64,000 bases of DNA from a virus. Taxonomy: Duplodnaviria > Heunggongvirae > Uroviricota > Caudoviricetes. The stretch lies in IMG/VR virus record IMGVR_UViG_3300013126_000013. The stretch is one strand, 5' to 3'. The notes beneath the pieces were generated by a model. The model saw nothing but the letters and a program-made list of their open reading frames with translations, ran no database searches and had not been told where the DNA came from. The translations under genes were made by a program, and so were the position numbers. How positions within the stretch are numbered: position 1 is the stretch's first letter; each line of letters opens with the position of its first letter. Below are positions 6,844 through 53,941 of this stretch, in pieces.

Positions 6844-7424
6844 TCCGGCACCTCACGATTTGTCCAAGCCATCTTGAAACGTTCTTGTTTGGTTTGGTAG
6901 AACTCACGGTACGAACGAACAGGATCATTCGGATACATGCATTCAGGGTTCGACTTCATGGCAAGAGGCTGTTGAGTGAGAGGACCAACCTCGATGTTAC
7001 GAGGAAGCTGCTTCAGCTTCTCACGAAGAAGAGTATCAGTCGCATGCACCTTGCCATAGCGATAAGTGTATTCGTCACACAGAGCAGCAAAGTGAACCCA
7101 GTGCCAAGTGTAGTTGTTGTTTGACACCATCGTCCAGACTGTACACGGGTGGCCGACATGTACCGCTTTGTACAGCACATCTTCGCGATCATCTGGAAGA
7201 GTCCAGTGCTTCGACATAGTCTTGCCAGATTTAGAAGGTGCTCGCTTGAGTTTACCGTCGAGCATGCGATGCGCAGTTGATAGCATCTGAGCTGACTCGA
7301 CGATCATTTTTACTACATGTGCATTACATTGTAGTTGTGCTGCTTCAACTGGATCTTTCGAAAGTACGAAGATATTCATCAAGTTCATCCCAAAGTTTAG
7401 GGTCGTTGACCCCGTGTTCTTCAT
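6825..7424 (-). CDS. hypothetical protein (start uncertain, may be M13/M16)
   Basis: 199-aa ORF overlapping 3' end of upstream gene. Confidence 0.4.
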   Translation of the reverse strand: MKNTGSTTLNFGMNLMNIFVLSKDPVEAAQLQCNAHVVKMIVESAQMLSTAHRMLDGKLKRAPSKSGKTMSKHWTLPDDREDVLYKAVHVGHPCTVWTMVSNNNYTWHWVHFAALCDEYTYRYGKVHATDTLLREKLKQLPRNIEVGPLTQQPLAMKSNPECMYPNDPVRSYREFYQTKQERFKMAWTNREVPEWFTVK

Positions 7425-8040
7425 CTATGAAGACTATATCATAGCCTTGTTCGATTGTACATACCATTTTTGATATATTTAGATCTAGGTTTTGCTTCCA
7501 CGTCCAGTCGCTCTTGATTTCAACGATCAGATCGAGTTCAACAATGTAGAAGTCAGGGTAGTAGTGCCTTGACGTTCCTTCATGGGTGTATTCTATTCTA
7601 GACGGAACTTCTAAGGTGTACCCGCATTGTTCAGCAAAATCAACAAAAAGTTTTTCATAAGCAGACCTACACACAAATCCCTTGTATCTTTCTGCAACGG
7701 AATGTTTAGTTAAATATCCGTTTGAAACACCATATCGTTCAACCATTGTATCACGGCGCTTATCTATTAAGCTTTGCGGTTGAGTTCGCCCAGTCCAATA
7801 TGAGGTCGGTGCTATGTGATTAGATCTACACTTAGGTGAGCAATACTCGCGGTATCCTTCACCGAGATTACGAAACTTTTTAGCGGCACCACATTTGCAT
7901 ATCTGGCTAACCTCTTTTATGTATATATCGTAGTATTCTTTCTTTGAAATATTATGATTTCTAATGTGTTTGGCCAACCCATTCACATTATTGAATTCCT
8001 TTTTGCAAATATTACAAATAGCCATGCTAATCTCCTTCAT
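7345..8040 (-). CDS. Zn-finger + PD-(D/E)xK nuclease-like protein (homing-endonuclease-like)
   Basis: N-term CNICKKEF..HIRNH C2H2-like; C-term YYPDFYIVELDLIVEIK (PD..ExK); paralog of 58455..59117. Confidence 0.5.
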   Translation of the reverse strand: MKEISMAICNICKKEFNNVNGLAKHIRNHNISKKEYYDIYIKEVSQICKCGAAKKFRNLGEGYREYCSPKCRSNHIAPTSYWTGRTQPQSLIDKRRDTMVERYGVSNGYLTKHSVAERYKGFVCRSAYEKLFVDFAEQCGYTLEVPSRIEYTHEGTSRHYYPDFYIVELDLIVEIKSDWTWKQNLDLNISKMVCTIEQGYDIVFIDEEHGVNDPKLWDELDEYLRTFERSS

Positions 8041-8397
8041 GACTATTTATACAATTATGTATTTACAATGTGTTTGTCGAGGATGAAGAGGTTCATATTA
8101 TTTCCAGTACGTTTGACCGACGCCGAGAAGGCCTAGCTGTACAGATTTAATATGATAGCAGACATATGTCAACCGTTTTTTGCATGTGCAAGAAAAACCC
8201 TCATCATGCATGACAACCTCGCAGCCACGAAATGGCCAAGCTGTGCCAACAAGATGAGAGCCTTGAGTTAAGATTTTGTTATGCTGAAAGTATGTCATGA
8301 TAAGGCATAGACCATCATAAAGACTAGCACACCAAAACTAGCACCTAAAAAGATGCTGGCGATGAGTCCCCAGATAATTGCGTTGAGCAGGTCATCA

Positions 8398-8592
8398 TCA
8401 CTTAGTCGCATGGTAGTACGCGATCAGTTGTTTGTCTGCAGCCGTCAACTTCGAAAGCTCGCTCTTGTCTTTCAAGCGAGTCAGACGATCTGACAACGAG
8501 GCAAGAGCATTGCTGATCGTGTCGTTCTTGTGAGTAGCGGCCATGGCCGACATACCGTGCGAAAGTTCGAAGATGGTGCGTTCAAAAGTCAT
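8398..8592 (-). CDS. hypothetical protein (64 aa)
   Basis: ORF. Confidence 0.4.
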   Translation of the reverse strand: MTFERTIFELSHGMSAMAATHKNDTISNALASLSDRLTRLKDKSELSKLTAADKQLIAYYHATK

Positions 8593-8602
8593 ATCGTTCT
8601 CC

Positions 8603-8757
8603 TTAGAGGTCAGCCATGGTCATGATACGGTCAAGACGAAGTTCGAGGTTCTTGACCTTCATATTTGCAACATCTTTCTCGACGATAGTCGAGGCTTTCA
8701 TCAGGTCTTCTTTGGCTTTGATGAGGAGGTCGGTGAGGATCGTGACGATGTCAGACA
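8603..8757 (-). CDS. small hypothetical protein (50 aa)
   Basis: sub-threshold ORF; stop overlaps AAGGAG RBS of next gene. Confidence 0.3.
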
Positions 8758-8774
8758 TGTTCTACTCCATTGCT

Positions 8775-8815
8775 TACTAGTTAGATATAGTACTTGGCAA
8801 CGGAAATGTCAACCG
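8775..8815 (-). promoter_or_regulatory. phage promoter (extended consensus copy)
   Basis: CTTACTAGTTAGATATAGTACTTGGCAACGGAAATGTCAACC; near-identical to copies at 37575 and 61110. Confidence 0.6.
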
Positions 8816-8904
8816 GTAAAATGCACTTTTTGCAAATTATTTTCTTGTTGACAACTTTGGCAGGTTGTGTATAATACCTTTAAGGTCTTCAGAATACTTT
8901 GATA

Positions 8905-9249
8905 TTAGATTCCATTAATCTGCTGATACTTCTTCCGTAGATCCATAAACTGTGGTAGCCAGTTCAGTGGCTGTTCTACAAAGATCTGTGGTTGTTCATC
9001 ATCAACCATAACGAGAGTAACAATCTGTTTGATTGGAATACCAGTCAGCTCGTAGAACGCTGCAGCATAGAATGACTCTTGCATGAAGTAACCATTCGTA
9101 TAAATAGTACTGATCGCGGAGGTACCAGCTCCCATCAGCTCTAGAAAACAAAAGGAATTCCCAGCATGGCTATTTATTACACATACCTTATAGGTTGGTC
9201 GAAACTCAATAGATGGTATTATGGCGTTAGATATGCTAAAGATGCTCAT
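8905..9249 (-). pseudogene. truncated duplicate of the 3' end of nuclease gene 9802..10554
   Basis: last ~58 aa (AAFYELTGIPIKQIVTLVMVDDEQPQIF..RKKYQQINGI) parallel C-terminus of the 250-aa gene; N-terminal part unrelated. Confidence 0.55.
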
Positions 9250-9816
9250 CCAAATGAACTGTGGATGAGATATTTTACATCTTCTAAGGTTGTTAAGAAG
9301 TTTGTAGAGATCAATGGTGAACCAGACGTAATTGAAATTCGTAAAACCTTTGATTCGCCATCTAAAGCTCGTTTATGGGAATCTAGAGTTCTCACTAGAA
9401 TGAGAGTTTCTAGTGATAACAGATTTCTTAATATAACTACTAATGCTGCTCCAGTATCTCCTTCAGAATTACCTAAGGAAGTAGAAGATCTTAGACGATC
9501 AAAAATATCATCTTCGCATAAGATCGGAAATATACAATATCGATCACAAAAAGAATCATACCCAGATTCTGCTAAGTCAATTATTTCCCAAAAGACTAAA
9601 GATAGATGGGCCAAAACCGACAAAACCATTCTATCTGAAAAGATGAAACAGGGGTGGAAGAACATGACCCAAGAATCTGAAGAAATGAGAAAAGAATCTT
9701 GGAAGAAAGCGTACCACGCTAAACCATTGTTAGAGTGTCCACATTGCGGCAAAACTGGCAAAAACCGAAGCGCAATGAGTAGATGGCATTTCACAAACTG
9801 TTCATATACCCTTTAA
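9166..9816 (+). mobile_element. GIY-YIG homing endonuclease gene (216 aa)
   Basis: IYYTYLIGW..YYGVRY GIY-YIG motif; plus-strand insertion among minus genes; C-terminal CPHCGKTG Zn-finger-like. Confidence 0.75.
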
Positions 9817-10554
9817 TTCGAAGTATTTTCTACGCAAAGATATAAACTTTGGAAGCCATTCATATGTGTTAACAGTGAACACTTGCGGCAAATCATCGTC
9901 GACCATTACAAGAATTACGCCTTGTTTAATTGGGATTCCGGTTCTTTCATAAAAAGCTGCGGCGTAAAATGCTGTTTGTAGAAAATATCCTTCAATCCAC
10001 TCAGCCTTCTTTGGCTTACGAGATGTCTTAAAGTCAATGATGGATAGTTGACCATCAAACTCTGCAATCAAGTCGACTCGACCAGCAGTCTTGATCTTCC
10101 TTGAATACAACGGTGCTTCCTGAAAGTAGATGTTATCGACTCGAGCATCGAGCACTGGCTTGAGTGTGTTGAAAGTCATTACATTGATCGGCATGCGACC
10201 TTTGCCATAGTCGACTTCATTGTTCAGATAATTTTCAGCAATGAGGTGGACATCAGATCCACGATTCGCAGCCTGAACACTGATGCGCTTTGCTTCCTCT
10301 TCACCAACACGAGCTTTCCATGCTTCGAGTCCAGACTTGTCCTGCACGCTGAGCACAGTTGTAACTGAAGGAAACTTCTCGCCGGTTGGAGGAAAATAGA
10401 AACGCCCGGTTGGAGTAGTATCACAACCGAGCTGATCGAGTACAATTCCATGATTGACATGGTTAAACATTGGATTGGTTCTTTCGATATTTGGAAACAA
10501 GGAACTCAAGCGTATCTGGAATATGCTTGAAGAATCGTAGTCCTTCTTTTCCAT
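9802..10554 (-). CDS. PD-(D/E)xK-type nuclease (250 aa)
   Basis: IIDFKTSRK motif; full-length copy of gene whose 3' end is duplicated at 8905..9084. Confidence 0.45.
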   Translation of the reverse strand: MEKKDYDSSSIFQIRLSSLFPNIERTNPMFNHVNHGIVLDQLGCDTTPTGRFYFPPTGEKFPSVTTVLSVQDKSGLEAWKARVGEEEAKRISVQAANRGSDVHLIAENYLNNEVDYGKGRMPINVMTFNTLKPVLDARVDNIYFQEAPLYSRKIKTAGRVDLIAEFDGQLSIIDFKTSRKPKKAEWIEGYFLQTAFYAAAFYERTGIPIKQGVILVMVDDDLPQVFTVNTYEWLPKFISLRRKYFELKGI

Positions 10555-11158
10555 TCATTGCAAATGCTTCTTCACGAGTGACTTTTCGCCACTCATCAAA
10601 TGTTTTGGTCTGGCAATCAATACTTATATGATCGTCCATGATGGTTACATCGTAAGTAAAGCCAGTGAGCACGATGGGCTTCTGAGTCGTCTTACGAGTG
10701 ATGTTAGCATATCCATCAATTACAAAATCGCCATACACCCAAGCGTCATCATGCACCTTCGAGTGGCCTAAGATTTCAATCTTTCCGAATACTTGAGAAT
10801 TTCCATACACTGATGAAATACCATCAATAATAGCTTCATCATACACTAACGCGTTTTGAAAGACGTTTGTTTGACCAGTGACAAGAGCATCATCTGATAT
10901 CTTTGCGTTGCCATATACGTTCGCTTGATCTTTTACTTTTGCGTTTCGGTCGACTTGTGCTTTATCGTATACAAGTGCGCTGTCATATATCCAGCAATCG
11001 CCTTCATGTGAAAGGTTAGCTTCGCTTTCAACAAACCCACCGATATCACCAGCACTCACATCTGCAAAGTCTCGAAGTGCTTGAACAGCGTATAACCTCT
11101 TTTGACCAACTCGAATATCGATATCTCGATTCAGCTTGTACTTAGGTTGAAGCATCAT
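10463..11158 (-). CDS. hexapeptide-repeat (left-handed beta-helix) protein
   Basis: >12 tandem hexapeptides [LIVA]xxxxx (AKVKDQ ANVYGN AKISDD ALVTGQ TNVFQN ...). Confidence 0.55.
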   Translation of the reverse strand: MMLQPKYKLNRDIDIRVGQKRLYAVQALRDFADVSAGDIGGFVESEANLSHEGDCWIYDSALVYDKAQVDRNAKVKDQANVYGNAKISDDALVTGQTNVFQNALVYDEAIIDGISSVYGNSQVFGKIEILGHSKVHDDAWVYGDFVIDGYANITRKTTQKPIVLTGFTYDVTIMDDHISIDCQTKTFDEWRKVTREEAFAMNGKEGLRFFKHIPDTLEFLVSKYRKNQSNV

Positions 11159-11633
11159 CTACTTTAATTTCATTGAACGTTAATTCAAACGTTGGAAGTT
11201 TCACTTTGTTCATATCGGGCAAATCTTTCGAGTAGGATACAGACACATGTGGTTTATATTCAGGCCATGCATCTTTCATGTCATAGGTATCTTCATAGTA
11301 TTTTCTGAGTCTCGATATCGCTAGTGACTCTACCTTCAATACCGGTATGTCATTATTAGCTCCAAGCATCATAATGTCAACTACTTTTGCGCTGTTCGGA
11401 GGCGCAATTGTGTGTTTACGATTCGGTATATCATGCTTTGAAGTAGTGAAGAAGATCGTTGTATGAAAGTCGAAGTCTTCTTCGCCCTGCTTCGTACCAT
11501 CATACTTTGTGGTCAGATCAAAGCCGTTTTCTTTTGCCCACTTTCGAAGCTTACGTTGAGTTGCTTCATCATACTGTACAGCAACGTATTTTTCTACCGG
11601 AGCCTTTTCCATAAAATCTCTAAAACTAATCAT
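11142..11633 (-). CDS. hypothetical protein (163 aa)
   Basis: ORF. Confidence 0.45.
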   Translation of the reverse strand: MISFRDFMEKAPVEKYVAVQYDEATQRKLRKWAKENGFDLTTKYDGTKQGEEDFDFHTTIFFTTSKHDIPNRKHTIAPPNSAKVVDIMMLGANNDIPVLKVESLAISRLRKYYEDTYDMKDAWPEYKPHVSVSYSKDLPDMNKVKLPTFELTFNEIKVDDAST

Positions 11634-11637: not shown

Positions 11638-11937
11638 TTATCCTATGAATACGGATGATGCACCACTTGTTATGCTACCAGCATCACAACCATCACCAAC
11701 TTTTGCTGCTGATATTCCACCAATCTTTACACTTGACGTTGCACCGTTTATAAACTCTACATGCGGTACACAGTCATCGCCAACTAACACTGTATGCGAT
11801 ACTGTAGGGTCGCCTTGGCATGCCACAAGCTGACCCTCTACAAACACCGTCGATTGTGATGGTGTATTCAGCGTAGTCGACCCGGTACAGGCATGTCCAG
11901 TCGAAACAGAATCAGTTTTACGAGCGATCGCTGGCAT
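11638..11937 (-). CDS. PAAR-like protein (spike-tip type, cf. T4 gp5.4)
   Basis: MPAIARKTDSVSTGH.. and VKIGGISAAKVGD..GSITSGASSVFIG resemble PAAR repeats. Confidence 0.55.
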   Translation of the reverse strand: MPAIARKTDSVSTGHACTGSTTLNTPSQSTVFVEGQLVACQGDPTVSHTVLVGDDCVPHVEFINGATSSVKIGGISAAKVGDGCDAGSITSGASSVFIG

Positions 11938-12099: not shown

Positions 12100-12846
12100 T
12101 TATAACCCCAATCTATCGCGTTCGATGATATAAGACTTGACTAATTTTGATCGAACAATGTCTTCTACTTGGAAGTCGACGAATTCAAACTCTTTCATTC
12201 GTTCAATGATTCTCATAAAGTCACGAAGGCCTGATAGTTCTTTCTTACGCTCAGACGTAAGGTCGTCTTGCTTCACGTCACCGCAAAAGATGATTCTGCA
12301 ATTTTCACCAACACGAGTCATGACTGTATGTAGTTCACCATCACCCATGTTTTGGACTTCGTCGACGAGAAGAATGCAATCGTCAAATGTCTCTCCGCGA
12401 AGATACGACGTCGTAATAAACTCTACGTAACCTTTACCCTTAAGTACTTCATACGCATCGCCTCTACCAAACAGCTTTGTCGCAATCGGCACATACGGAG
12501 CTTCAAAGACTTTCGCTTTGTCTTTCAATGATCCAGGTAAAAATCCTTGATCACGAGTTGATACTGTCGAACGAACAATGTAGACTTTTTTGTACGGCGA
12601 GTTTGCTTTCAATACTTCTTTGAGAGCAAAATGCAATCCAAGAAATGTTTTGCCGGTACCAGCGATACCGTGAAGCATCATATTGTATCCATCATCCCAA
12701 CGATCAAACGCAAGTCTTTGATTCTCTGTCATTGGTGATATATCAGACTTCATAGCAAACATCTTTGCTTCGCCTGATTCAACTGTTCCATCTTGCTTTA
12801 AGATTCTTTTTTGCCGCTTTGTTAGTCTTTGTTGTTGTAGAGGCAT
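12100..12846 (-). CDS. phoH: PhoH-like ATPase
   Basis: GIAGTGKTF Walker A, LLVDEVQN Walker B, PhoH-family length/organisation. Confidence 0.8.
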   Translation of the reverse strand: MPLQQQRLTKRQKRILKQDGTVESGEAKMFAMKSDISPMTENQRLAFDRWDDGYNMMLHGIAGTGKTFLGLHFALKEVLKANSPYKKVYIVRSTVSTRDQGFLPGSLKDKAKVFEAPYVPIATKLFGRGDAYEVLKGKGYVEFITTSYLRGETFDDCILLVDEVQNMGDGELHTVMTRVGENCRIIFCGDVKQDDLTSERKKELSGLRDFMRIIERMKEFEFVDFQVEDIVRSKLVKSYIIERDRLGL

Positions 12847-46894: not shown

Positions 46895-46949
46895 GATTTC
46901 CTCTATTGAAACTACAAAGCGGCCAGAGACAAACTCTAGCCGCTACGAT

Positions 46950-47023
46950 TGGTGCTGAAGGAGAGAATCGAACTCTCATCGATGGGATACGAAGCCATTG
47001 TAATACCACTATACTACGTCAGC
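46950..47023 (-). tRNA. tRNA (probable Thr, anticodon CGU; one acceptor mismatch)
   Basis: T-arm GAGAGTTCGATTCTCTC, acceptor GCTGACG/CTTCAGC+A+CCA encoded. Confidence 0.45.
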
Positions 47024-47029
47024 ATGAAT

Positions 47030-47105
47030 TGGTGCTGCAAGAGGGAATCGAACCCCCGACCTGATGCTTACAAGGCAACTGCTCTACCGACTGAGCTACT
47101 ACAGC
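47030..47105 (-). tRNA. tRNA-Thr(UGU)
   Basis: cloverleaf: GCTGTAG..GCTCAGTCGGTAGAGC..loop CTTGTAA..GGGGGTTCGATTCCCTC..TTGCAGCACCA. Confidence 0.65.
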
Positions 47106-47112
47106 GTTATTT

Positions 47113-47185
47113 TGGAGCGGGTAGCCAGAATCGAACTGGTCTCCTACAGCTTGGAAGGCTGCCTGGCTACCATAGCCTTACCCGC
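47113..47185 (-). tRNA. tRNA-Gly(UCC)
   Basis: acceptor GCGGGTA/TACCCGC, anticodon loop CTTCCAA, T-loop TTCGATT, CCA encoded. Confidence 0.6.
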
Positions 47186-47263
47186 GTTATTCTTATTTAT
47201 ACTTCTCGCTCCGACCAGTCCATTTAGAGTTTGGACAAACTTGGGGCTAAAAAGCCACTCCAC

Positions 47264-47287
47264 CACCTGCTTTTACGAAAGCAGGAA
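47264..47287. other. perfect 8-bp hairpin (CCTGCTTT-TACG-AAAGCAGG)
   Basis: between HEG and tRNA-Gly; possible processing/termination structure. Confidence 0.3.
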
Positions 47288-47357
47288 AATTCGTCAGGAT
47301 CGTTTTGTCCGCTAAGACATCGAATATTATTTAGCGTTTTTGTTTGCTGAACCGATC

Positions 47358-47993
47358 CTATCTCTTACGACTTTTATACCATCCTTCTGGTATAATGTCA
47401 ACATCTTTTTTGATCTTCTTGTTCTCTTTACCGTCCGTTATCCACATCGTGCCGAACTGAGAATTTGAAGAACCAACATTCTTTGACTTACGCAACTTTT
47501 GTATCGTATCTTCTGAATGCTTCTTTCCTGTAAAGCCTCTACTGTTTTTGCCACCTAGAGAAGAATGAATTTTTCTTTTAGTTACAAAGTCATCATCTGT
47601 TTCCATAAGTCTTTTTATAACTCGTGCAGCTGCAGCAGATGCCTTTTTAGAAAAATTTGGATCTAACCTTCTTTGTTCATCTAAAGATACAGACTTTCCA
47701 CTCATGTTCAGATAACCAAATCCACCATTACCTCCTGGGCAAAGGTTGTAAGTGTCTTCTCTTAAGCAGAACTCTTCTGTTACCAACAGAGCTTCTTTAG
47801 CATTCATATCAGCTTCATTATCAAACTGGAAGAGAATTTCTTTCGTAAAGTTCTCGATTCCATGTTTGTTTTGAGCAGATTTTAGATGTTTACCAGAACC
47901 CATGTAACCATCATTCAAGTCTTTGGTCTGATGTTTTCCAATATAGATCTCGCCATTGATTAGGTTAGTGATCTTGTAGATTGTGTAGAACAT
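47358..47993 (-). mobile_element. GIY-YIG homing endonuclease gene (segB-like position in tRNA cluster)
   Basis: MFYTIYKITNLINGEIYIGKH GIY-YIG. Confidence 0.7.
47365..47404 (-). promoter_or_regulatory. phage promoter inside 3' end of HEG, driving tRNAs
   Basis: revcomp GTTGACATTATACCAGAAGGATGGTATAAA. Confidence 0.5.
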
Positions 47994-48048
47994 TGTTTGT
48001 ACTCATAGTTTTATGCCTTCGCTACTATTTATACAAACAATGTTCTCT

Positions 48049-48125
48049 GTGTCCGGATGGTGGGACTCGAACTCACGACCTACGGTACCCAAAACCGTCG
48101 CGCTACCAGACTGCGCTACACCCGG
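48049..48125 (-). tRNA. tRNA-Pro(UGG)
   Basis: CCGGGTG TA GCGC..loop TTTGGGT..TTCGAGT..CATCCGG A. Confidence 0.6.
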
Positions 48126-48243
48126 ATTATTCTTTGACGTACTCTCCCGTCTGAGTCACCTGGTGCCATCAGGTCAGAGTCAGTATAATCACCCAAACTA
48201 GTAATAGTCTTGCAGGGTTTTGGCGTATCTGACTACGCATATT

Positions 48244-48318
48244 TGGCAGGGGCCGTGGGAATTGAACCCACTTCTCAAGGTTTTGGAGACCTGCGGATTA
48301 CCACTTTCCTTGACCCCT
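48244..48318 (-). tRNA. tRNA-Trp(CCA)
   Basis: acceptor AGGGGTC/GGCCCCT, loop CTCCAAA, T-arm GTGGGTTCAATTCCCAC, CCA encoded. Confidence 0.55.
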
Positions 48319-48326
48319 ATAATCTT

Positions 48327-48402
48327 TGGCTCCCTGAGTAGGGCTTGAACCTACGACCCGCTGATTAACAGTCAGCTGCTCTACCAACTGAGCTATCAGG
48401 AA
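48327..48402 (-). tRNA. tRNA-Asn(GUU)
   Basis: GCTCAGTTGGTAGAGC D-arm, loop CTGTTAA, GTAGGTTCAAGCCCTAC. Confidence 0.65.
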
Positions 48403-48403
48403 T

Positions 48404-48800
48404 AAACTATTTGTCCATTGTACACCCGCAACGGACTAACGACTTGATAGGGTGACCCTCAGACTGAGTAGTTGAACTTCTGACATCTTTTAATGTTCAA
48501 CTTCTACGTGCCAACTCGTCTTCTCATGGTGTCGTCTTAACTTTATTCTCTGTTTTCAACGATACACCACCAAAGCGCTTGAAGCCCGAAGAGGTGGCAA
48601 CAGCTACTATGTCTACCCGCTTACATCTTTCGAATGGTGCACGTAGTGTATCTATGAAAACAGAGTACTCGTTATAACACTATTTATATTCGGGTCTTAC
48701 GGGTTTGTCCCTGCCCGATAATCAACTGGAACTTCTACCTTCATGATCTCGGATCGTCGTGGTTTTCTTGTTCCTTACTATTACAATCTATACTATTCTA
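48404..48800 (-). ncRNA. ~400-nt non-coding transcribed spacer (candidate small stable RNA(s))
   Basis: no ORF, no tRNA; lies between promoter at 48807 and tRNAs; near-repeats GTTGAACTTCT/GTTCAACTTCT. Confidence 0.3.
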
Positions 48801-48815
48801 CAGGAATGTCAACTA
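48775..48815 (-). promoter_or_regulatory. phage promoter (TTGACAT family) driving ncRNA/tRNA block
   Basis: CAATCTATACTATTCTACAGGAATGTCAACTAC. Confidence 0.6.
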
Positions 48816-49036
48816 CTATTTTTAGTTTTTCGCACTTTTTTCTTTTGATCTTGCATGAGGTGTAAATGCTTTTGATACAAGTGTTCTTCTTCTTGTTCTT
48901 CGCGAGTCTCGCGAATCGCTTTAATTGTTTTGATCAATTTACGATGCGCTCGAGCGACGAGTGATCGTTGGAATCGATCTTTACGAGAAGGTTTTTCGAA
49001 ATGGATTTCTACGTCTTCAGTAGTTACTTCAGTCAT
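48809..49036 (-). CDS. hypothetical Lys/Arg-rich protein (75 aa)
   Basis: GAGGTGAT RBS. Confidence 0.4.
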   Translation of the reverse strand: MTEVTTEDVEIHFEKPSRKDRFQRSLVARAHRKLIKTIKAIRETREEQEEEHLYQKHLHLMQDQKKKVRKTKNSS

Positions 49037-49059
49037 AACATCACCTCATTGTTGTTATA

Positions 49060-49147
49060 TGGCGGATGGAGGAGGAATCGAACCCCATAGGTTTCCCTAT
49101 GAACCGCTTTCCAGGCGGCCTCCCGCGCCAGCTAGGAGACTCCATCC
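49060..49147 (-). tRNA. tRNA-Ser(GGA), type II
   Basis: GGATGGA acceptor, loop CTGGAAA, long variable arm CATAGGGAAACCTATG, CCA encoded. Confidence 0.6.
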
Positions 49148-49171
49148 ATACTTTGAGGTTTGCTATATTTA

Positions 49172-49259
49172 TGGCAGAAGGTAGAAGCATCGAACTTCTG
49201 ACGAATTAACGTCACCCGGGCTTTCGAGACCCGTTGAGGAGCCAACCTCGGTACCTTCC
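49172..49259 (-). tRNA. tRNA-Ser(CGA), type II
   Basis: GGAAGGT/ACCTTCT acceptor, loop CTCGAAA, long variable arm, CCA encoded. Confidence 0.55.
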
Positions 49260-49263
49260 ATAT

Positions 49264-49353
49264 TGGCGGATACGGCAGGATTTGAACCTGCGGACCCCTT
49301 TCGGGATCGACGGTTTAGCAAACCGCTGGTTTAAGCCACTCACCCACGTATCC
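49264..49353 (-). tRNA. tRNA-Ser(GCU), type II
   Basis: GGATACG/CGTATCC acceptor, loop TTGCTAA, variable arm GATCCCGAAAGGGGTC, T-arm GCAGGTTCAAATCCTGC. Confidence 0.6.
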
Positions 49354-49357
49354 AATA

Positions 49358-49732
49358 TTATCCAGCAGATCGAGTAATGAAGTTCAATCTGATCTTTTCT
49401 GGGCTAAAGTACTTAGCGATAAGTTCTTCTGCAATCTTTACGTCAACAGTCTTGCACGAGAAGATGTCAATATATGCATCACCATTTGAGTCAACAAGAT
49501 GCCCAGAGATATTGCTTGTCTCGATCATCTGAATAAAGCTGATACCAGCCTTGTCAGGTGCATGTGTAGCAAAATGCTCGATCATTGGTTCGCCATATGC
49601 AATCATATCGATCGCTGGCACCAACTCTTTAATGAAGTTGTAAACGTTTTCTTTGCTTGTAATTTTGTCAATGTCACATGCGGCGCAGTCGAACATTGCG
49701 TGATAGCCCCAATAAGCCATAGTATCCTCCAT
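49358..49732 (-). CDS. speD: S-adenosylmethionine decarboxylase-like (SpeD class 1b, pyruvoyl-dependent) protein
   Basis: GYHAMFDCAACD and GISFIQMIETSNISGHL..IDIFSC parallel SpeH (HLVAEFYECD..VVVISESHLTIHTWPE..IDLFTCG). Confidence 0.5.
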   Translation of the reverse strand: MEDTMAYWGYHAMFDCAACDIDKITSKENVYNFIKELVPAIDMIAYGEPMIEHFATHAPDKAGISFIQMIETSNISGHLVDSNGDAYIDIFSCKTVDVKIAEELIAKYFSPEKIRLNFITRSAG

Positions 49733-49738
49733 TATTGT

Positions 49739-49815
49739 TGGTGCCCTTGGTGAGACTCGAACTCACACTTTCCGGAGTTTGAAGCCGGTGACTCTACCAA
49801 TTGGCCTACAAGGGC
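49739..49815 (-). tRNA. tRNA, type-I body with anticodon CAA (Leu codon UUG) - atypical
   Basis: acceptor GCCCTTG/CAAGGGC A CCA; D-arm GGCCAATTGGTAGAGTC; stem CCGGC/TCCGG, loop TTCAAAC; no long variable arm. Confidence 0.45.
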
Positions 49816-49816
49816 G

Positions 49817-50092
49817 TTATCTACGATTGTCTTTCAGTTGCTCGAGAACTCGTTTCGCCTTTTCACGAAACGCTGCATCAGTAACGGTATCAGAGTCAAC
49901 GTCATTGCGAAGAGTGTACTTGATGCCTTCGTACCGATACAGCGCTTCTTCCATCGCCGAAGCATGAAACTGAATCCGCTCAACTGTTGCTTTGAGCATC
50001 GAGAAATCGTACGTTTCTAACATCTTTCGAATAGTATCAAGTTCGGAACAAATGTAACGGTTCACATCAATTGTGTACGGTACTTTCGACAT
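49817..50092 (-). CDS. hypothetical protein (91 aa; start moved downstream of tRNA)
   Basis: GAGGATGAG RBS before MSKVPY. Confidence 0.4.
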   Translation of the reverse strand: MSKVPYTIDVNRYICSELDTIRKMLETYDFSMLKATVERIQFHASAMEEALYRYEGIKYTLRNDVDSDTVTDAAFREKAKRVLEQLKDNRR

Positions 50093-50117
50093 CTCATCCT
50101 CATTTTGATTTTGAATT

Positions 50118-50193
50118 GGTGCGGATAGAGGGACTCGAACCCCCAACATGCGCGTTCTAAGCGCGCCGACTCTACCAATTGGCCTATATCCGC
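50118..50193 (-). tRNA. tRNA, type-I body with anticodon UAG (Leu codon CUA) - atypical
   Basis: acceptor GCGGATA/TATCCGC A CCA; same D-arm as 49739..49815; perfect stem GCGCG/CGCGC, loop CTTAGAA. Confidence 0.5.
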
Positions 50194-50298
50194 GATATCT
50201 GGTCGGTTTTAAGTTATCCGAAAACTATCAACCCATACTATGCCCAAGCAGCTTGGAAGCCGGCTATCTATTCTCTGGTTGTCCGAACATTCGATCTT

Positions 50299-50374
50299 TG
50301 GTGCGGAATGAGAGGGTCGAACTCCCGACATCTTCGGTGTAAACGAAGCGCTACTACCACTGAGCTAATTCCGC
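50299..50374 (-). tRNA. tRNA-Val(UAC)
   Basis: GCGGAAT..loop TTTACAC..GGGAGTTCGACCCTCTC..ATTCCGC A CCA. Confidence 0.6.
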
Positions 50375-50538
50375 TTAAGTTTATTCCTCAAGTCATTCAG
50401 ACTTGTTTCTCTTTGCTGTGCTTCTACGTTAACCTTTGGTTCTTCGACATCATTATGAATGACTGCATTACCTTCAATTCGGCTTCGCAACTCAGCAATT
50501 CGTTTACGTAAAGAAGCAATTTCAGTTTGAAAATCCAT
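50365..50538 (-). CDS. small coiled-coil protein (57 aa)
   Basis: sub-threshold ORF, GGAGATG RBS; stop lies in tRNA-Val 5' end. Confidence 0.3.
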   Translation of the reverse strand: MDFQTEIASLRKRIAELRSRIEGNAVIHNDVEEPKVNVEAQQRETSLNDLRNKLKRN

Positions 50539-50552
50539 TGCATCTCCAATTT

Positions 50553-50626
50553 TGGCGACCTATGAGGGACTCGAACCCTCTTCACCCGGTGGACAGCCGA
50601 GCGTAATACCCATATACGAATAGGCC
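50553..50626 (-). tRNA. tRNA-Asp(GUC)
   Basis: GGCCTAT/ATAGGTC, loop CTGTCCA, GAGGGTTCGAGTCCCTC, CCA encoded. Confidence 0.55.
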
Positions 50627-50629
50627 AAT

Positions 50630-50669
50630 TCTTGTTTAATCTATACTATCTACTTGGTAGTGTCAACTA
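50630..50669 (-). promoter_or_regulatory. phage promoter (TTGACAT family)
   Basis: CTATACTATCTACTTGGTAGTGTCAACTAC. Confidence 0.5.
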
Positions 50670-50910
50670 CTTTTTTCAAGTAGTCGTAAGTTTCTTCATA
50701 AGTCTTAAAGACCTTCGTTCCATGCTTGCTCATGACTCTCACTGACGATCCAAAGCATTGAACACGTCCAAAACCTGGGTACCTACCGTTGCCAAGGAAT
50801 CGAGAGTTCCATCGGGTACGGCGACGTACAGGATCATGAAACAGATGAGGTATGCTAAGAATAGTGCTGCAATTTGCATAGAACTCTTCTTTCTCTTGAA
50901 TTGTTTTCAT
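50650..50910 (-). CDS. hypothetical protein (86 aa; start after tRNA)
   Basis: ORF; listed 110-aa ORF overlaps tRNA-Gly. Confidence 0.4.
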   Translation of the reverse strand: MKTIQEKEEFYANCSTILSIPHLFHDPVRRRTRWNSRFLGNGRYPGFGRVQCFGSSVRVMSKHGTKVFKTYEETYDYLKKVVDTTK

Positions 50911-50921
50911 ATTATACTTTC

Positions 50922-50996
50922 TGGAGCGGAGAATGGGGATCGAACCCACGACCATCTCGTTGGCAACGAGAAGCTCTACCACTGAGCTACCTCCGC
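50922..50996 (-). tRNA. tRNA-Gly(GCC)
   Basis: GCGGAGG TA GCTCAGTGGTAGAGC, loop TTGCCAA, GTGGGTTCGATCCCCAT, CCA encoded. Confidence 0.65.
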
Positions 50997-51002
50997 GTTA
51001 TT

Positions 51003-51041
51003 TGGTGGACCCTAGCGGGATCGAACCGCTAACTCCTAATT
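51003..51041 (-). pseudogene. tRNA 3' half (positions ~37-76 of a split tRNA-Ala-like gene)
   Basis: AATTAGGAGTTAGCGGTTCGATCCCGCTAGGGTCCACCA; acceptor 3' strand pairs with 5' half at 51668..51698 incl. G3:U70. Confidence 0.55.
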
Positions 51042-51617
51042 TATGGTGGAGGATAAGGGAGTCGAACCCTTGACTCTGCCTTGCAAGGGCAGCGTGTTCC
51101 CACTAGCACCAATCCCCCATTTGTCTTTTACTAATTCCTCAATCAAAGGAACTACTTCATTTGACCATTTACTATGAACCATTTCGTGATGATTTGGACA
51201 TAAGGGTATCAAATTTTTTGGTTCATTATTGTAATGATTTTCATCAATGTGATGAACCGCAACTACTTTATCAAATCCACAAATTGCACATTCACATTTC
51301 CAATTTTGAAATGCTATAGTTCTGTAGTGTGTAGCATTATCCTTCCACCATTCTTGCCTATTGTTTGCGCAAGACCTAGAGCAATAATACTTATCTTTCT
51401 GAGGATGAAGTTTTTCTCGTTCTGTTACTAAAAACTTATTAGAACAACATAAACATTCAACTTCAAATTCCTTTAATTCACCAAACTGACTAATAGTTCC
51501 TTGCGCTTTATTCCAATTATCCCTTTTAGGATTATGTTCACACCAACGACTATGATTAGCCTTTTCCGAAGTAGTTGAGAAATTAAACTCTATTTTGCAA
51601 TGTTTGCATTTCCACAT
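51036..51617 (-). mobile_element. HNH homing endonuclease gene with N-terminal Zn-finger
   Basis: CECAICGFDKVVAVHHIDENHYNNEPKNLIPLCPNHHEMVH; ORF 3' end reads through tRNA-Ala. Confidence 0.65.
51044..51118 (-). tRNA. tRNA-Ala(UGC) (intact; G3:U70)
   Basis: GGGGGAT..loop CTTGCAA..AAGGGTTCGACTCCCTT..ATCCTCC A CCA. Confidence 0.65.
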
Positions 51618-51667
51618 TCGAATTACCTCCTATTATGGAGTATTTATAATTCGCATATTTTCAGCAA

Positions 51668-51698
51668 ATCAGGCGCTCTCCCAACTGAGCTAAGAGCC
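51668..51698 (-). pseudogene. tRNA 5' half (acceptor + canonical D-arm + 5' anticodon stem) of split tRNA-Ala-like gene
   Basis: GGGCTCT TA GCTCAGTTGGGAGAGC G CCTGA TTTGC..; near-identical to E. coli tRNA-Ala(UGC) 5' half. Confidence 0.55.
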
Positions 51699-51702
51699 CG
51701 AA

Positions 51703-51725
51703 ACTATCTAGAGGGGACCTATTCC
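51703..51725. other. perfect 7-bp hairpin CTAGAGG-9nt-CCTCTAG beside split tRNA half
   Basis: inverted repeat in sequence. Confidence 0.3.
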
Positions 51726-51812
51726 TCTAGCAGGTAGATGATGCGTGATCGCCTCAACGAGTCAGGTCGAGAACTCTCAGCAGTGATCAGTGGGATCATC
51801 TACAATATTGGC

Positions 51813-51900
51813 AGAGAGCGGGTGGTATCGAACCCCAACCGGGTACTAGCCGGTCCACTAGTTTTCAAGACTAGGCTGCAGACCTCTGCAGATCACTCTC
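51813..51900 (-). tRNA. tRNA-Ser(UGA), type II (weak T-stem)
   Basis: GAGAGTG, D-stem CTGC/GCAG, perfect stem CTAGT/ACTAG loop CTTGAAA, long variable arm; CCA not encoded. Confidence 0.45.
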
Positions 51901-51908
51901 CATGGAAT

Positions 51909-51983
51909 TGGCACCAGTGGAAGGAATCGAACCCTCTACGCGCGGTTTTGGAGACCGCCGCTCTACCACTGAGCTACACCGAT
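51909..51983 (-). tRNA. tRNA-Trp(CCA), second copy
   Basis: ATCGGTG TA GCTCAGTGGTAGAGC, stem GCGGT/ACCGC loop CTCCAAA, GAGGGTTCGATTCCTTC, CCA encoded. Confidence 0.55.
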
Positions 51984-52051
51984 ATAAAATTTCAGCCGGT
52001 GAATTCTTTTGTACGTGCGGCCGGATCCGTCACAATTTCTGACTAAAGACA

Positions 52052-52124
52052 AAACTGTAATAGGGATCGAACCCATATCTCCCCGCCGTTCCGCAAGGCG
52101 TGCTATCCATTGCACCATACAGTC
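52052..52124 (-). tRNA. tRNA-like gene, anticodon arm non-canonical (8-nt loop or 6-bp stem); anticodon unresolved
   Basis: acceptor GACTGTA/TACAGTT, D-arm GTGCAATGGATAGCAC, T-arm ATGGGTTCGATCCCTAT. Confidence 0.35.
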
Positions 52125-52338
52125 TACTAGTTCGCTTTCTCGGCAAAGACTGCTACTGTAGTTCTCTAGTCAAGGCAATTGCCGCTGCCTATATAAATTC
52201 CTGGGCATCTCGCAATTGGGACTCTTACCCCTGCATCCAAGCTATGACTCAGACCGTGTTTCCCGATACGCCGAGTAGCCCTGTGGCGTATGTAGTGTTC
52301 TCATTGTAGTAGATGTCGACCTCTTCTACAACGTTTTA
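52125..52338 (-). ncRNA. ~210-nt non-coding spacer within tRNA cluster (candidate stable RNA)
   Basis: no ORF/tRNA; GGCAATTGCC palindrome. Confidence 0.25.
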
Positions 52339-52412
52339 TTGGTGCTCCTGGAATGAGTCGAACATTCGTAAGCAGGCTTCGTAGACCCGCCACCGGATCC
52401 GCCGGCAGAAGC
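52339..52412 (-). tRNA. tRNA-Arg(ACG)-like with compact D-region
   Basis: acceptor GCTTCTG/CAGGAGC A CCA, loop CTACGAA, perfect T-arm GAATGTTCGACTCATTC; D region CCGGCGGATCCGG. Confidence 0.45.
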
Positions 52413-52413
52413 G

Positions 52414-52719
52414 TTATGGCATATAAAGACCTTCGATCTGTGGATCAACAATCATTTCAGGCATGTCATCAATCCAAACATCGATATTAATCTTGTGAAC
52501 GTGAAGCATAAAGTCTCGTTTAGGGCGTAGGCCTGTTCCGAAGCAATTCTCAGCACCGATGATACGACCAATAGTATACTTGGGATCATCCATGTGTTGA
52601 ATGCCACGAGCAGATACACAGTAAACTTTATGTCCACGGTCAAGAGCTTGTTGTGCGAACCAATTCCACAACAGTGGATCTTTGGTGTAGGTGTCATCGT
52701 AGTCAATCGAGATATTCAT
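52414..52719 (-). CDS. hypothetical protein (101 aa; start after internal promoter)
   Basis: GAGGAG RBS before MNISIDYDD. Confidence 0.45.
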   Translation of the reverse strand: MNISIDYDDTYTKDPLLWNWFAQQALDRGHKVYCVSARGIQHMDDPKYTIGRIIGAENCFGTGLRPKRDFMLHVHKINIDVWIDDMPEMIVDPQIEGLYMP

Positions 52720-52724
52720 CTTTT

Positions 52725-52769
52725 TCTCCTCTACACCATCATAATCTAAACTGTTCCACATGTCAACCT
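52725..52769 (-). promoter_or_regulatory. phage promoter (TTGACA-17-TATGAT)
   Basis: revcomp GTTGACATGTGGAACAGTTTAGATTATGAT. Confidence 0.6.
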
Positions 52770-52774
52770 CTAAA

Positions 52775-52848
52775 TGGTGCTGCTAGAAAGAATCGAACTT
52801 TCTTCTCATCCGTACCAAGGACGTATAATACCAGTATACTATAGCAGC
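52775..52848 (-). tRNA. tRNA-Thr(GGU)
   Basis: GCTGCTA/TAGCAGC, loop TTGGTAC, AAAGTTCGATTCTTTC, CCA encoded. Confidence 0.6.
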
Positions 52849-52853
52849 GTTAT

Positions 52854-52927
52854 TGGTGTTCCCACCAGGAATCGAGCCTGGGCCTTCTCCGTGTCGAGGA
52901 GATGAGCTTCCATTACACCATGGGAAC
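52854..52927 (-). tRNA. tRNA (anticodon GAC, Val?) with irregular D-stem
   Basis: GTTCCCA/TGGGAAC A CCA, stem TCTCC/GGAGA loop TCGACAC, T-arm CCAGGCTCGATTCCTGG. Confidence 0.4.
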
Positions 52928-52932
52928 ATTGT

Positions 52933-53010
52933 TGGTGCGGCCACCGGGAATCGAACCCGGTTCTCAAGCTTGAGAGGCCGGCGACCATCGCCAAGTAGTC
53001 CTACGCGAGT
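52933..53010 (-). pseudogene. tRNA-like 3' fragment containing perfect palindrome TCTCAAGCTTGAGA
   Basis: good T-arm CCGGGTTCGATTCCCGG + TGGCCGC A CCA, but no complementary 5' acceptor strand. Confidence 0.4.
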
Positions 53011-53088
53011 TGGTACAGCGTACGGGTATCGAACCCGTCATCTCCGAATTGAAAGTACGGCGACCACCCCATCTAGTCCGACGCTGCA
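53011..53088 (-). tRNA. tRNA-Glu(UUC)
   Basis: GCAGCGT/ACGCTGT A CCA, loop CTTTCAA, ACGGGTTCGATACCCGT. Confidence 0.55.
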
Positions 53089-53146
53089 TAAATTTCAGGG
53101 GCATGATTGCTTTGAAATGCCGAAGCCCAGCGGCATTGGGGTTTAT

Positions 53147-53234
53147 TGGTGGGAGTGAAGGGAATCGAACCCAACATGCGTTACCGCGACAGATTTACAG
53201 TCTGCTGCCTCACCTTGAGGCGTCACTCCCAAAC
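53147..53234 (-). tRNA. tRNA-Tyr(GUA), type II
   Basis: GGGAGTG/CACTCCC A CCA, loop CTGTAAA, variable arm CGCGGTAACGCA. Confidence 0.55.
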
Positions 53235-53239
53235 TTGGT

Positions 53240-53310
53240 AGCGCCAGATGGACTCGAACCATCCCTACGGGCTTATGAGACCCATGTCAGCACCTGCTGT
53301 GTCGCCATAA
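53240..53310 (-). tRNA. tRNA-Met(CAU), initiator-like (GGG:CCC anticodon stem, acceptor mismatch)
   Basis: stem TGGGT/GCCCG, loop CTCATAA, GATGGTTCGAGTCCATC, TGGCGCT A CCA. Confidence 0.5.
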
Positions 53311-53316
53311 TTTGGT

Positions 53317-53390
53317 GTTCCTACAAGGTAACGATCCTTGGTCTCTCGCTTATCAGGCGAACGCTCTACCTTTGAGCTATAGGAACATGT
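53317..53390 (-). tRNA. tRNA-Ile(GAU)
   Basis: GTTCCTA TA GCTCAAAGGTAGAGC, loop CTGATAA, T-loop ATCGTTA, TAGGAAC A CCA. Confidence 0.6.
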
Positions 53391-53392
53391 TA

Positions 53393-53433
53393 ATCTAACA
53401 CTATACTAATTGAAGACGAATGTCAACAACTAT
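53393..53433 (-). promoter_or_regulatory. phage promoter (TTGACAT family)
   Basis: CACTATACTAATTGAAGACGAATGTCAACAAC. Confidence 0.55.
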
Positions 53434-53454
53434 TTTCATAGTACTTAATTTGGT

Positions 53455-53530
53455 GCACTTGGAGAGAATCGAACTCCCGACACCAGGATCTTCAATCCCG
53501 TGCTCTACCGTCTGAGCTACAAGTGCGTTA
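53455..53530 (-). tRNA. tRNA-Phe(GAA)
   Basis: GCACTTG TA GCTCAGACGGTAGAGC A CGGGA TTGAAGA TCCTG..GGGAGTTCGATTCTCTC CAAGTGC A CCA. Confidence 0.7.
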
Positions 53531-53535
53531 TTGGT

Positions 53536-53605
53536 CAGGATGGCGGGAATCGAACCCACGCCGGAAGCTTCCAAGGCCGCCACGCTACCACTACGCTACA
53601 TCCTG
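53536..53605 (-). pseudogene. tRNA-like gene with anticodon arm replaced by palindrome GGAAGCTTCC
   Basis: perfect acceptor CAGGATG/CATCCTG A CCA, D-arm and T-arm present; no 5-7-5 anticodon stem-loop can be drawn. Confidence 0.4.
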
Positions 53606-53680
53606 TTTATGAGTTTGGCTCTACCTCCTCGTAGGCGACTTAGCTACACTTCAAGTTTGCAGTACCGTGAATGTGTTTTG

Positions 53681-53760
53681 CTCGGTCGGCTGGGATCGAA
53701 CCAGCGCCATATTGGGTCTCCGGTTAACAGCCGGGCGCATTACCACTCTGCCACGACCGA
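53681..53760 (-). tRNA. tRNA (anticodon GUU?, extended variable region)
   Basis: perfect acceptor TCGGTCG/CGACCGA, loop CTGTTAA in CCGG stem, T-arm GCTGGTTCGATCCCAGC; CCA not encoded. Confidence 0.4.
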
Positions 53761-53777
53761 GCAAAACACACTTTATT

Positions 53778-53853: not shown

Positions 53854-53860
53854 AAAGTAT

Positions 53861-53935: not shown

Positions 53936-53941
53936 ACATTT

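Follow-up and report, generated by a model that had tools for sequence, protein, structure and literature searches.

The 64,000-nucleotide (nt) stretch of Caudoviricetes DNA analysed here (IMG/VR virus record IMGVR_UViG_3300013126_000013; below, "the window" means this whole stretch) carries near its beginning a gene for a putative PD-(D/E)XK exonuclease, a convergent gene for a putative GIY-YIG-fold homing endonuclease that overlaps the exonuclease 3′ end by 15 nt, and a small open reading frame (ORF) beyond it (Table 1). A sequence-only reading had earlier placed these three ORFs where we find them, and had proposed that some 180 nt of the exonuclease 3′ end are present twice, bracketing the homing endonuclease gene (HEG). 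The bracketing duplication is borne out, at 60% amino acid (aa) and ~70% nt identity; its length is somewhat greater than claimed, at ~190-195 nt. Over its last 65 residues, the 114-aa ORF gives an ungapped alignment with exonuclease residues 186-250 (39/65 identical; BLASTP E 4e-27), and in an alignment of the two DNA copies (~8905-9096 and ~9802-9999) the matches fall at all codon positions, so that the likeness is not at protein level only. Both copies match phrog_298, an exonuclease family of PHROG, at E 1e-75 (full gene) and 7e-12 (fragment), the match of the small ORF covering exactly the duplicated part; the exonuclease ORF also matches Pfam PDDEXK_1 (E 1e-8). Judged by these comparisons, the 3′-end duplication is genuine, far beyond chance.

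Two of the ORFs are probably shorter than first read. The N-terminus of the 114-aa ORF had been described as unrelated; its ~49 aa prove to be the antisense of the endonuclease leader and first codons, and in other assemblies of the same phage gene callers predict a 76-aa ORF at the fragment. For the exonuclease, the true start is most likely the ATG at 10470, giving a 222-aa form, because almost all homologues in a large protein collection have 222-223 aa; the 250-aa reading overlaps the upstream gene.

Table 1. Coordinates of the exonuclease locus, of the parts of the proposed cassette, and of HEG-like genes in the transfer RNA (tRNA) cluster. Codon numbers, here and in the text, follow the 250-aa ORF.
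Feature	Position	Strand	Description
PD-(D/E)XK exonuclease ORF	10554..9802	-	250 aa as read
Predicted GIY-YIG-fold endonuclease ORF	9166..9816	+	216 aa, putative free-standing homing endonuclease gene
Small ORF	9249..8905	-	114 aa
Native backbone part of exonuclease gene	10000..10554	-	codons 1-185 of the 250-aa ORF; (D/E)xK motif IIDFKTS
Imported type-B 3′ end	9802..9999	-	codons 186-250 + stop, in frame; QxxxY-type motif LQTAFYAAAF
Endonuclease leader, cassette right end	9097..9165	+	69 nt
Leader elements	9099-9106; 9110-9138; 9152-9157; 9166	+	TATAAATA box; inverted repeat; Shine-Dalgarno AAGGAA; ATG
Displaced native type-A 3′ end	8905..9096	-	codons 188-250 + stop; putative right-hand homology arm
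Near-invariant block among HEG-containing loci	9062..9200	.	fragment's first ~35 nt, leader, first endonuclease codons
Endonuclease architecture (predicted)			216 aa; N-terminal GIY-YIG-fold nuclease domain, helical linker, C-terminal CCHC zinc finger
GIY-YIG-type HEG-like genes in tRNA cluster	47358-47993; 56963-57490
HNH-type HEG-like genes in tRNA cluster	51036-51617; 54298-55017; 57836-58429

Native and imported gene ends

Cultured phages were unusable as close relatives, because a megablast search with 3.7 kb around the locus found no match among GenBank phages and a distant blastn search gave short exonuclease matches only; close uncultured relatives were drawn from IMG/VR (loci from these and other assemblies carry L numbers below). 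At least 12 of them (L001-L011 and L027) have one intact exonuclease gene and no endonuclease gene; ~150 nt beyond the exonuclease come the same small genes as are found past the fragment in the window. With a single gene in relatives that lack the HEG, a comparison to which the sequence-only reading had looked, the duplication is a result of the endonuclease insertion.

Over its first 185 residues (the N-part) the window exonuclease is 90-97% identical in aa sequence to those of L001-L005 and L027, with a ratio of nonsynonymous to synonymous substitution rates (dN/dS) of 0.02-0.03. The last 65 aa of the HEG-less relatives are 77-86% identical to the window fragment, but only 62-65% to the end that the window gene now has, and the DNA alignment of the window with L001 stops inside the gene, restarts at 9095, and is colinear from there on into the downstream genes. 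Since the ends of the HEG-less relatives match the fragment and the alignment resumes at 9095, the downstream fragment is to be read as the native end ("type A"), and the working end ("type B") as a newcomer brought by the endonuclease. Which copy was original and which imported had not been stated by the sequence-only reading; on this comparison, the uncultured relatives settle it.

The junctions are sharp. Backbone gives way to type B at the very codon where the fragment starts, 187/188; the changeover from backbone to cassette falls within codons ~183-188, and appears in sliding identity as a sharp switch at codon ~185. These alignments describe a block of ~900 base pairs (bp; ~9097-9999), inserted at one point and made up of the type-B end of ~63-65 codons, the opposite-strand endonuclease gene, and its leader. 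The (D/E)xK motif (IIDFKTS) precedes the insertion point, and the QxxxY-type motif (LQTAFYAAAF) comes just after that point; in assigning these motifs we rely on what we take to be established knowledge of RecB/Cas4-like PD-(D/E)XK nucleases. The type-B codons are in frame with the host gene, beside the endonuclease ORF, and the carried-in end would thus keep the exonuclease gene whole, while the native C-terminus is kept downstream of the endonuclease ORF and is closer to the relatives than the inserted end is.

Two further explanations were rejected. An Rfam search of 8300-10800 (E<=1) found no RNA family, group I introns included, and the endonuclease ORF is on the strand opposite to its host gene, which together argue against an intron- or intein-borne endonuclease; an assembly artefact is contradicted by the presence of the same layout in seven or more independent assemblies.

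HEG-containing loci were obtained from the large protein collection, followed by contig look-ups. The collection has endonuclease homologues that are 77-85% identical to the window protein, and every contig recovered for these has the same layout (L078, L079/L080, L081, L085, and L092); L083/L084 are the same phage as the window in other samples, with the same architecture in independent assemblies. Contig scans with the endonuclease protein found only one 31%-identical locus each in IMG/VR and in JGI metagenome contigs. In the HEG-containing loci, the endonuclease gene overlaps the exonuclease gene by 15 nt and a type-A fragment begins ~65 nt upstream of the endonuclease start. The type-B end of the five other loci is 92-97% identical in aa sequence to that of the window (dN/dS 0.02-0.03 for four pairs), on backbones that are diverged: the exonuclease N-part is 75-85% identical in nt sequence, and the neighbouring genes 62-82% in aa sequence. 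Type B is strictly linked with the endonuclease gene in all HEG-containing loci; L091, considered below, has a partial patch only.

The clearest case for movement between lineages comes from L079. Compared with HEG-less L007, it has 87-100% nt identity across the N-part, 58-70% in the type-B segment, and then 95.5% over 644 nt, taking in the first codons of the fragment onward and ~450 nt downstream, including the spacer; its fragment is 94% identical in nt sequence to the working 3′ end of L007. Compared with HEG-containing L081 the pattern is reversed: nt identity is 70-84% for the N-part and rises to 89-100% for the type-B segment. Because the flanks of L079 are L007-like and its cassette L081-like, with the switch within a few codons of 185, the cassette has, on this evidence, crossed between phage lineages, the adjoining fragment being the recipient lineage's own gene end. 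The same site thus shows both presence/absence (HEG-less in L001-L011 and L027, HEG-containing in L078, L079, L081, L085, and L092) and incongruence between cassette and backbone.

L091 has an allele of another kind. Its exonuclease 3′ end is not accompanied by an endonuclease gene: beyond the stop codon the contig has only 139 nt more, which are ordinary HEG-less spacer. Its exonuclease gene is L004-like (89-98% nt identity) except for codons ~183-215; this stretch of ~100 bp is type B (93-96% nt identity to the window), and type A resumes with codons 215-250 and the spacer that follows them. The simplest readings of this chimeric gene are that the diverged repeats recombined at the conserved MVDDD codons, with loss of an endonuclease gene, or that repair left a conversion patch. 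Its sequence points to a "HEG lost, site changed" stage of a homing cycle, and to codons ~183-215 as the stretch relevant to cleavage.

A second lineage (L087-L090) carries a 318-aa homologue of the endonuclease (44% identity) in the same convergent, overlapping position at the same codon. Upstream of it is a 72-aa ORF, a stranded exonuclease end that starts within two codons of the same site; this is 88% identical to the ends of HEG-less L013/L014 (the N-parts being 77% identical), and 54-60% identical to the current end of L087 itself. The layout is thus that of the window, but the types of end are different ones. L087 also has a TATAAATA box at the equivalent junction. In L086, the endonuclease (49% identical) is again convergent, with no detectable fragment. 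These loci show the association of this endonuclease family with this exonuclease codon to be old and recurrent.

The endonuclease, its leader, and the stranded fragment

By its predicted structure, the endonuclease has the GIY-YIG alpha/beta catalytic fold. It matches the PHROG "homing endonuclease" families (phrog_314, E 5e-8), and its homologues in cultured phages (35-37% identity) are annotated as Seg-like or GIY-YIG homing endonucleases. Those in ACP17 and Ps15 were considered as precedents for the present arrangement and rejected, as they lie between baseplate genes and not near an exonuclease gene. Residues Y7, Y18, Y19, G20, E72, and N89 are invariant in 35 homologues, and R22 is at least 90% conserved; these conserved residues presumably correspond to Y6, Y17, R27, E75, and N90 of I-TevI. 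The CCHC zinc finger (C191, C194, H208, and C212, at least 90% conserved) would be a separate DNA-binding module, and NUMOD3 (PF07460) is present in many homologues. The endonuclease gene is intact in each of its six copies (216 aa), with dN/dS of 0.07-0.15; to judge from these ratios, both the endonuclease and the type-B end are under purifying selection.

The endonuclease leader contains a TATAAATA box, which we take to be the T4-type late-promoter consensus. This sequence occurs 22 times in the window, versus 1.8 expected (twelve-fold enrichment), and stands just upstream of nearly every HEG-like gene there, from which we infer that late expression of the endonuclease is likely. The leader is 93-100% identical in four HEG-containing loci, in which the rest of the cassette is 75-90% identical. 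By alignment and sliding identity, near-invariance (93-100%) extends over ~10-35 nt at the start of the fragment, over the leader, and into the opening codons of the endonuclease gene; in the corresponding 35 nt, HEG-less genes show synonymous variation. Such an invariant junction block would fit a short co-conversion tract, a constrained regulatory region, or both. Regulation of the leader at the RNA level is a suggestion; the sequences are too invariant for covariation.

The leader has a look-alike elsewhere in the window. The leaders at 57485-57552 (minus strand) and 9097-9165 (plus strand), which belong to unrelated endonuclease genes, share their layout and some short strings, in the order TATAAATAGT, an inverted repeat containing TCGCG, CTCTAGAA, and an A-rich Shine-Dalgarno region; the L087 leader has CGGAGTACCAG in common with that of the window. 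A common promoter-leader module for HEG cassettes is possible.

The stranded type-A fragment shows signs of decay. In HEG-less phages, the native type-A ends have dN/dS of 0.05-0.10; the sole recently separated pair of a fragment and a native end, the L079 fragment and the L007 gene, gives 0.52 (synonymous divergence, dS, of 0.10). The L078 fragment has a 15-nt deletion corresponding to five codons of a conserved AAFYE, the L085 fragment is frameshifted, and the fragment is without the upstream nuclease motifs. It is most likely a slowly decaying, non-functional remnant rather than a gene, and it would be renewed at each entry of the cassette into a fresh genome.

The spacer downstream of the locus contains a perfect sigma-70-type promoter sequence at 8848-8875 (plus strand: TTGACA, 16 nt, TATAAT; 12/12), which reads antisense through the stranded fragment in the direction of the endonuclease gene. 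HEG-less L001, L004, L005, and L007 keep both hexamers, with a varying spacer; in these the promoter sequence runs antisense to the working exonuclease gene, entering it at the 3′ end.

Probable homing and its alternatives

We consider it probable that the ~9097-9999 block is a mobile homing cassette lodged in the exonuclease gene together with a replacement gene end, the native end having been displaced and left to decay. In a mixed infection, the endonuclease would cut the type-A allele of a HEG-less phage within codons ~183-215, while type B, which differs by ~30% in DNA sequence, would be spared. Repair from the HEG-containing genome could then use the exonuclease N-part as left arm and, as right arm, the donor's type-A fragment and the DNA downstream of it; the recipient would gain the cassette, and its own 3′ end would become the new fragment. 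Later recombination between the diverged repeats might delete the endonuclease gene, leaving a chimeric and presumably resistant allele. For a cassette of this kind to form in the first place, one-sided or illegitimate repair would have been required; T4 intron homing offers documented examples (Parker et al., 1999, as cited in PMC2988022).

Several points weigh against this scheme or parts of it. Foldseek gives a weak match of the endonuclease to I-TevI (E 0.25), searches of Pfam and NCBIfam found no GIY-YIG match even at E<=10, and the family profile found no match in PDB; as the sequence libraries fail, the GIY-YIG assignment rests on the predicted fold. The fold of the leader hairpin is only marginally better than those of shuffled sequences (z -1.9), and most fragments remain open reading frames. 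The cutting of type A, the sparing of type B, and the position of the cut are presumed from sequence patterns, and the one, indirect, support for type-A cleavage and for immunity of HEG-containing alleles is the type-B patch of L091 (codons ~183-215). The cassette copies are only 77-93% identical to each other in nt sequence, so their spread must be old, with no recent sweep, and some of the shared architecture may reflect vertical inheritance with exchange of flanks rather than repeated homing. The left flank of L079 is less L007-like (84-85% overall) than its right flank, which suggests a mosaic history. Finally, no donor lineage for type B was found: among 120 classified full-length homologues there is no type-B end outside the cassette, and a protein search with the 65-aa type-B segment alone gave only five short ORFs, of which most are stranded fragments. 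Outside the cassette, type B has no match better than ~71% in aa sequence, and its identity to all sampled ends is about equal (60-71%); it may have come from a foreign gene or from an ancient duplicate made in place.

One alternative is that the endonuclease gene is no longer homing at all, but is an inherited, domesticated, or inert passenger, and that the breakpoints are those of ordinary recombination at a conserved motif. The divergence of the cassette copies (7-23% at DNA level, with no recent sweep) would be expected in that case, as would the coincidence of the breakpoints with a very conserved coding motif favouring homologous exchange, and cleavage of type A by the enzyme is something that we infer. 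An inert gene would hardly be intact and under purifying selection in six copies, however, nor does inertness account for the strict linkage of type B to the endonuclease gene or for a 44%-identical homologue holding the same codon in a second lineage; presence/absence, the co-converted junction, and the resistant-looking patch are classic signs of homing. We regard this alternative as unlikely.

As a second possibility, the two ends could have arisen in place: the 3′ end would have been tandemly duplicated when the endonuclease gene was inserted, the upstream copy then diverging, for instance to escape cutting. This accords with the missing donor lineage and the distant best match, as well as with the roughly equal distance of type B from all sampled ends, which a fast-diverged old duplicate would give. 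Type B is not visibly fast-evolving, however, but under strong purifying selection (dN/dS 0.02-0.03), and it is 89-100% identical in nt sequence between L079 and L081 on backbones of 70-84%, while the flanks of L079 match L007. In present-day genomes the segment has therefore been imported with the endonuclease, and in-place duplication, which we think quite unlikely, is limited to the first origin of the cassette.

The third alternative concerns the fragment only. As a 76- or 114-aa ORF it might be a selected small gene, such as a regulator of the nuclease or the endonuclease: its frame is uninterrupted both in the window and in L079, L081, L092, and the lineage of L087; a protein of 72-76 aa is predicted by gene callers; and dN/dS among fragments is 0.07-0.15. 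Most of the divergence behind that low ratio, however, would date from the time when these sequences were part of working genes, and the one recent pair gives the much higher value already cited. Neither the lost AAFYE codons of L078 nor the frameshift of L085 suits a working gene; as read from the sequence, no Shine-Dalgarno sequence precedes the ATGs, the N-terminal extension is the antisense of the endonuclease leader, and the upstream nuclease motifs are missing. A working small gene seems improbable.

The reverse polarity, with the full gene native and the fragment carried in with the endonuclease gene from a donor, has in its favour that the first ~35 nt of the fragment are near-invariant among HEG-containing loci and so travel with the cassette, but it is hardly credible and was rejected, since the 3′ ends of HEG-less relatives match the fragment and not the present end, since the fragment past those ~35 nt is specific to each lineage and runs on unbroken into the downstream flank (95.5% over 644 nt between L079 and L007), and since the end common to HEG-containing loci is type B.

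If the preferred reading, a mobile cassette with a replacement end, is taken one step further, the locus may be the scene of a serial end-swapping contest at one exonuclease codon. Related GIY-YIG endonucleases would target the DNA encoding the QxxxY motif, each accompanied by a different resistant 3′ end, and the repeats so created would permit loss of the HEG and give rise to L091-like alleles. We offer this tentatively, as a real possibility that falls somewhat short of being probable; the papers searched contain no account of such a contest in phages. Were it true, type B would be displacing type A here while another type displaces a different native end in the L087 lineage; homing endonucleases would be directly driving the modular evolution of a core phage enzyme; and naive, invaded, decaying, and lost-but-resistant stages of homing would coexist in one natural system.

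The cassette reading has consequences of its own. A free-standing homing endonuclease could occupy an important phage gene without breaking it, by bringing a spare, and presumably uncuttable, version of the part that it displaces. Small "hypothetical" ORFs beside phage endonuclease genes are perhaps stranded ends, like those called here as 72-76-aa proteins. Endonuclease genes would mark sharp recombination boundaries and make mosaics of core genes. The target of this endonuclease is predicted to lie within the ~100 bp of codons ~183-215, and the sensitive, invaded, and patch-resistant alleles would make up a natural set for study of the homing cycle in phages.

Precedents, neighbouring genes, and the tRNA cluster

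The closest precedent that we found is mitochondrial. The atp6-ORF element of Allomyces macrogynus is described as a C-terminus-swapping mobile endonuclease (Paquin, Laforest and Lang, 1994, as cited in PMC3630166), and the atp6, atp9, cox2, and nad3 hybrids of Glomus sp. as mitochondrial C-terminus swaps (PMC3630166). In these, as here, a gene core is followed by an in-frame foreign C-terminus, an endonuclease ORF, and the native C-terminus downstream. The divergences are also similar: in Glomus the native copy is 91-98% identical in nt sequence to relatives and the copies within one genome 64-81% to each other, compared to ~80-94% and ~70% here; and one of the Glomus cases has a GIY-YIG enzyme, as against the predicted GIY-YIG-fold enzyme here. 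By this analogy, the window would hold a phage case of a known kind. A limited full-text literature search found no phage counterpart of the C-terminus swap, which is no proof of absence.

There are differences as well. The host DNA is that of mitochondria in one case and of a T4-like bacteriophage in the other. In Allomyces, and in Glomus atp6 and nad3, the endonuclease ORF is on the same strand, in phase or co-transcribed (PMC3630166), whereas here it lies on the strand opposite to the host gene and has a TATAAATA box and a Shine-Dalgarno sequence of its own. The target here is a nuclease gene, interrupted just before its QxxxY motif, and several invaded lineages, a second type of cassette, and a HEG-less chimeric allele are found together.

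Among phage systems, intronless homing by T4 SegF, SegG, and SegB (PMC2988022; PMC2330249) also involves free-standing GIY-YIG genes that lie beside phage genes and are present or absent among relatives. These are thought to cut the neighbouring gene's HEG-less allele, with co-conversion of a resistant donor flank, and they have their own or an embedded late promoter, much as proposed here. In the Seg cases, however, the donor flank simply replaces that of the recipient, the review describing no duplicated, displaced gene end (PMC2988022), whereas here the recipient 3′ end survives as a second copy and putative homology arm. Insertion of a HEG into a critical part of an essential-type T4-like enzyme gene, with extra sequence that preserves function, is known for mobE in Aeh1 nrdA, mobA with the gene 60 bypass element, and seg43 in gene 43 (PMC2988022); those insertions lead to split polypeptides that reassemble, or to translational bypass, while here the gene stays whole and does without the severed part. 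HEG-bounded recombination modules in phages (PMC10448857) likewise have an endonuclease gene exactly at an abrupt similarity boundary, but no duplicated target-gene end, such as is present here, is described on the far side of the HEG.

The window has a second HEG-like gene 1 kb from the first, at 7345-8072 (minus strand). It encodes 231 aa with a C2H2 zinc finger and DUF7487, matches a phrog annotated "endonuclease", and has TATAAATA at 8044-8051. The corresponding block of ~690 bp is cleanly absent from L001-L003 and L027, and lies in the same place in L004 (95% aa identity) and L008-L010 (82%), making it another presence/absence polymorphism.

Further HEG-like genes, at least six, are interleaved with the tRNA cluster at 46900-58500 (33 ARAGORN calls), most of them with TATAAATA just upstream. 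Uncalled tRNA-like part-sequences lie beside HEG-like genes, for example at 57684-57710, 57550-57600, 56861-56899, 54204-54265, and 52928-52985. The sequence-only reading had seen at these loci the same logic of fragment, HEG, and full copy as at the exonuclease, and had suggested a shared insertion mechanism. This is plausible in general terms, and unproven. The part-sequences are not copies of the neighbouring full tRNAs, and a blastn-short search with the tRNAs of the window found no partial copies of them beyond the called tRNA genes. Two HEG-like proteins of the cluster (the only two compared pairwise) have no similarity to the endonuclease of the exonuclease locus, and at the one tRNA locus that was read (57480-57840) the order is full tRNA, 3′ fragment, 5′ fragment, and then HEG, which differs from that of the exonuclease locus.

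Two elements of the cluster are unusual in themselves. The sequence at 51812-51902 (minus strand), where ARAGORN calls no tRNA, matches the Rfam tRNA-Sec family at 50.6 bits versus a gathering threshold of 47, and may be a tRNA with a long variable arm or a true selenocysteine tRNA. At 52051-52125 (minus strand), ARAGORN calls a tRNA with a four-base anticodon (gaac), leaving its identity undetermined; the Rfam tRNA match is 41 bits.

On the other side of the exonuclease gene, the neighbours at 11142-11633 and 11638-11937 (both minus strand) include an Acb1-like anti-CBASS phosphodiesterase (Pfam Acb1, E 2e-11) and a small Gly/Cys-rich ORF, counterparts of which in related loci have a weak PAAR motif. 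PhoH is encoded at 12100-12846, and this gene order is conserved in relatives. In the window, L001, and L079, acb1 and the exonuclease gene have a beta-solenoid gene between them, which is missing from this place in L005, L007, L008, and L081; in L007 a 42%-identical beta-solenoid copy is found ~1 kb downstream of the exonuclease gene, so that the neighbourhood is mosaic beyond the cassette itself.

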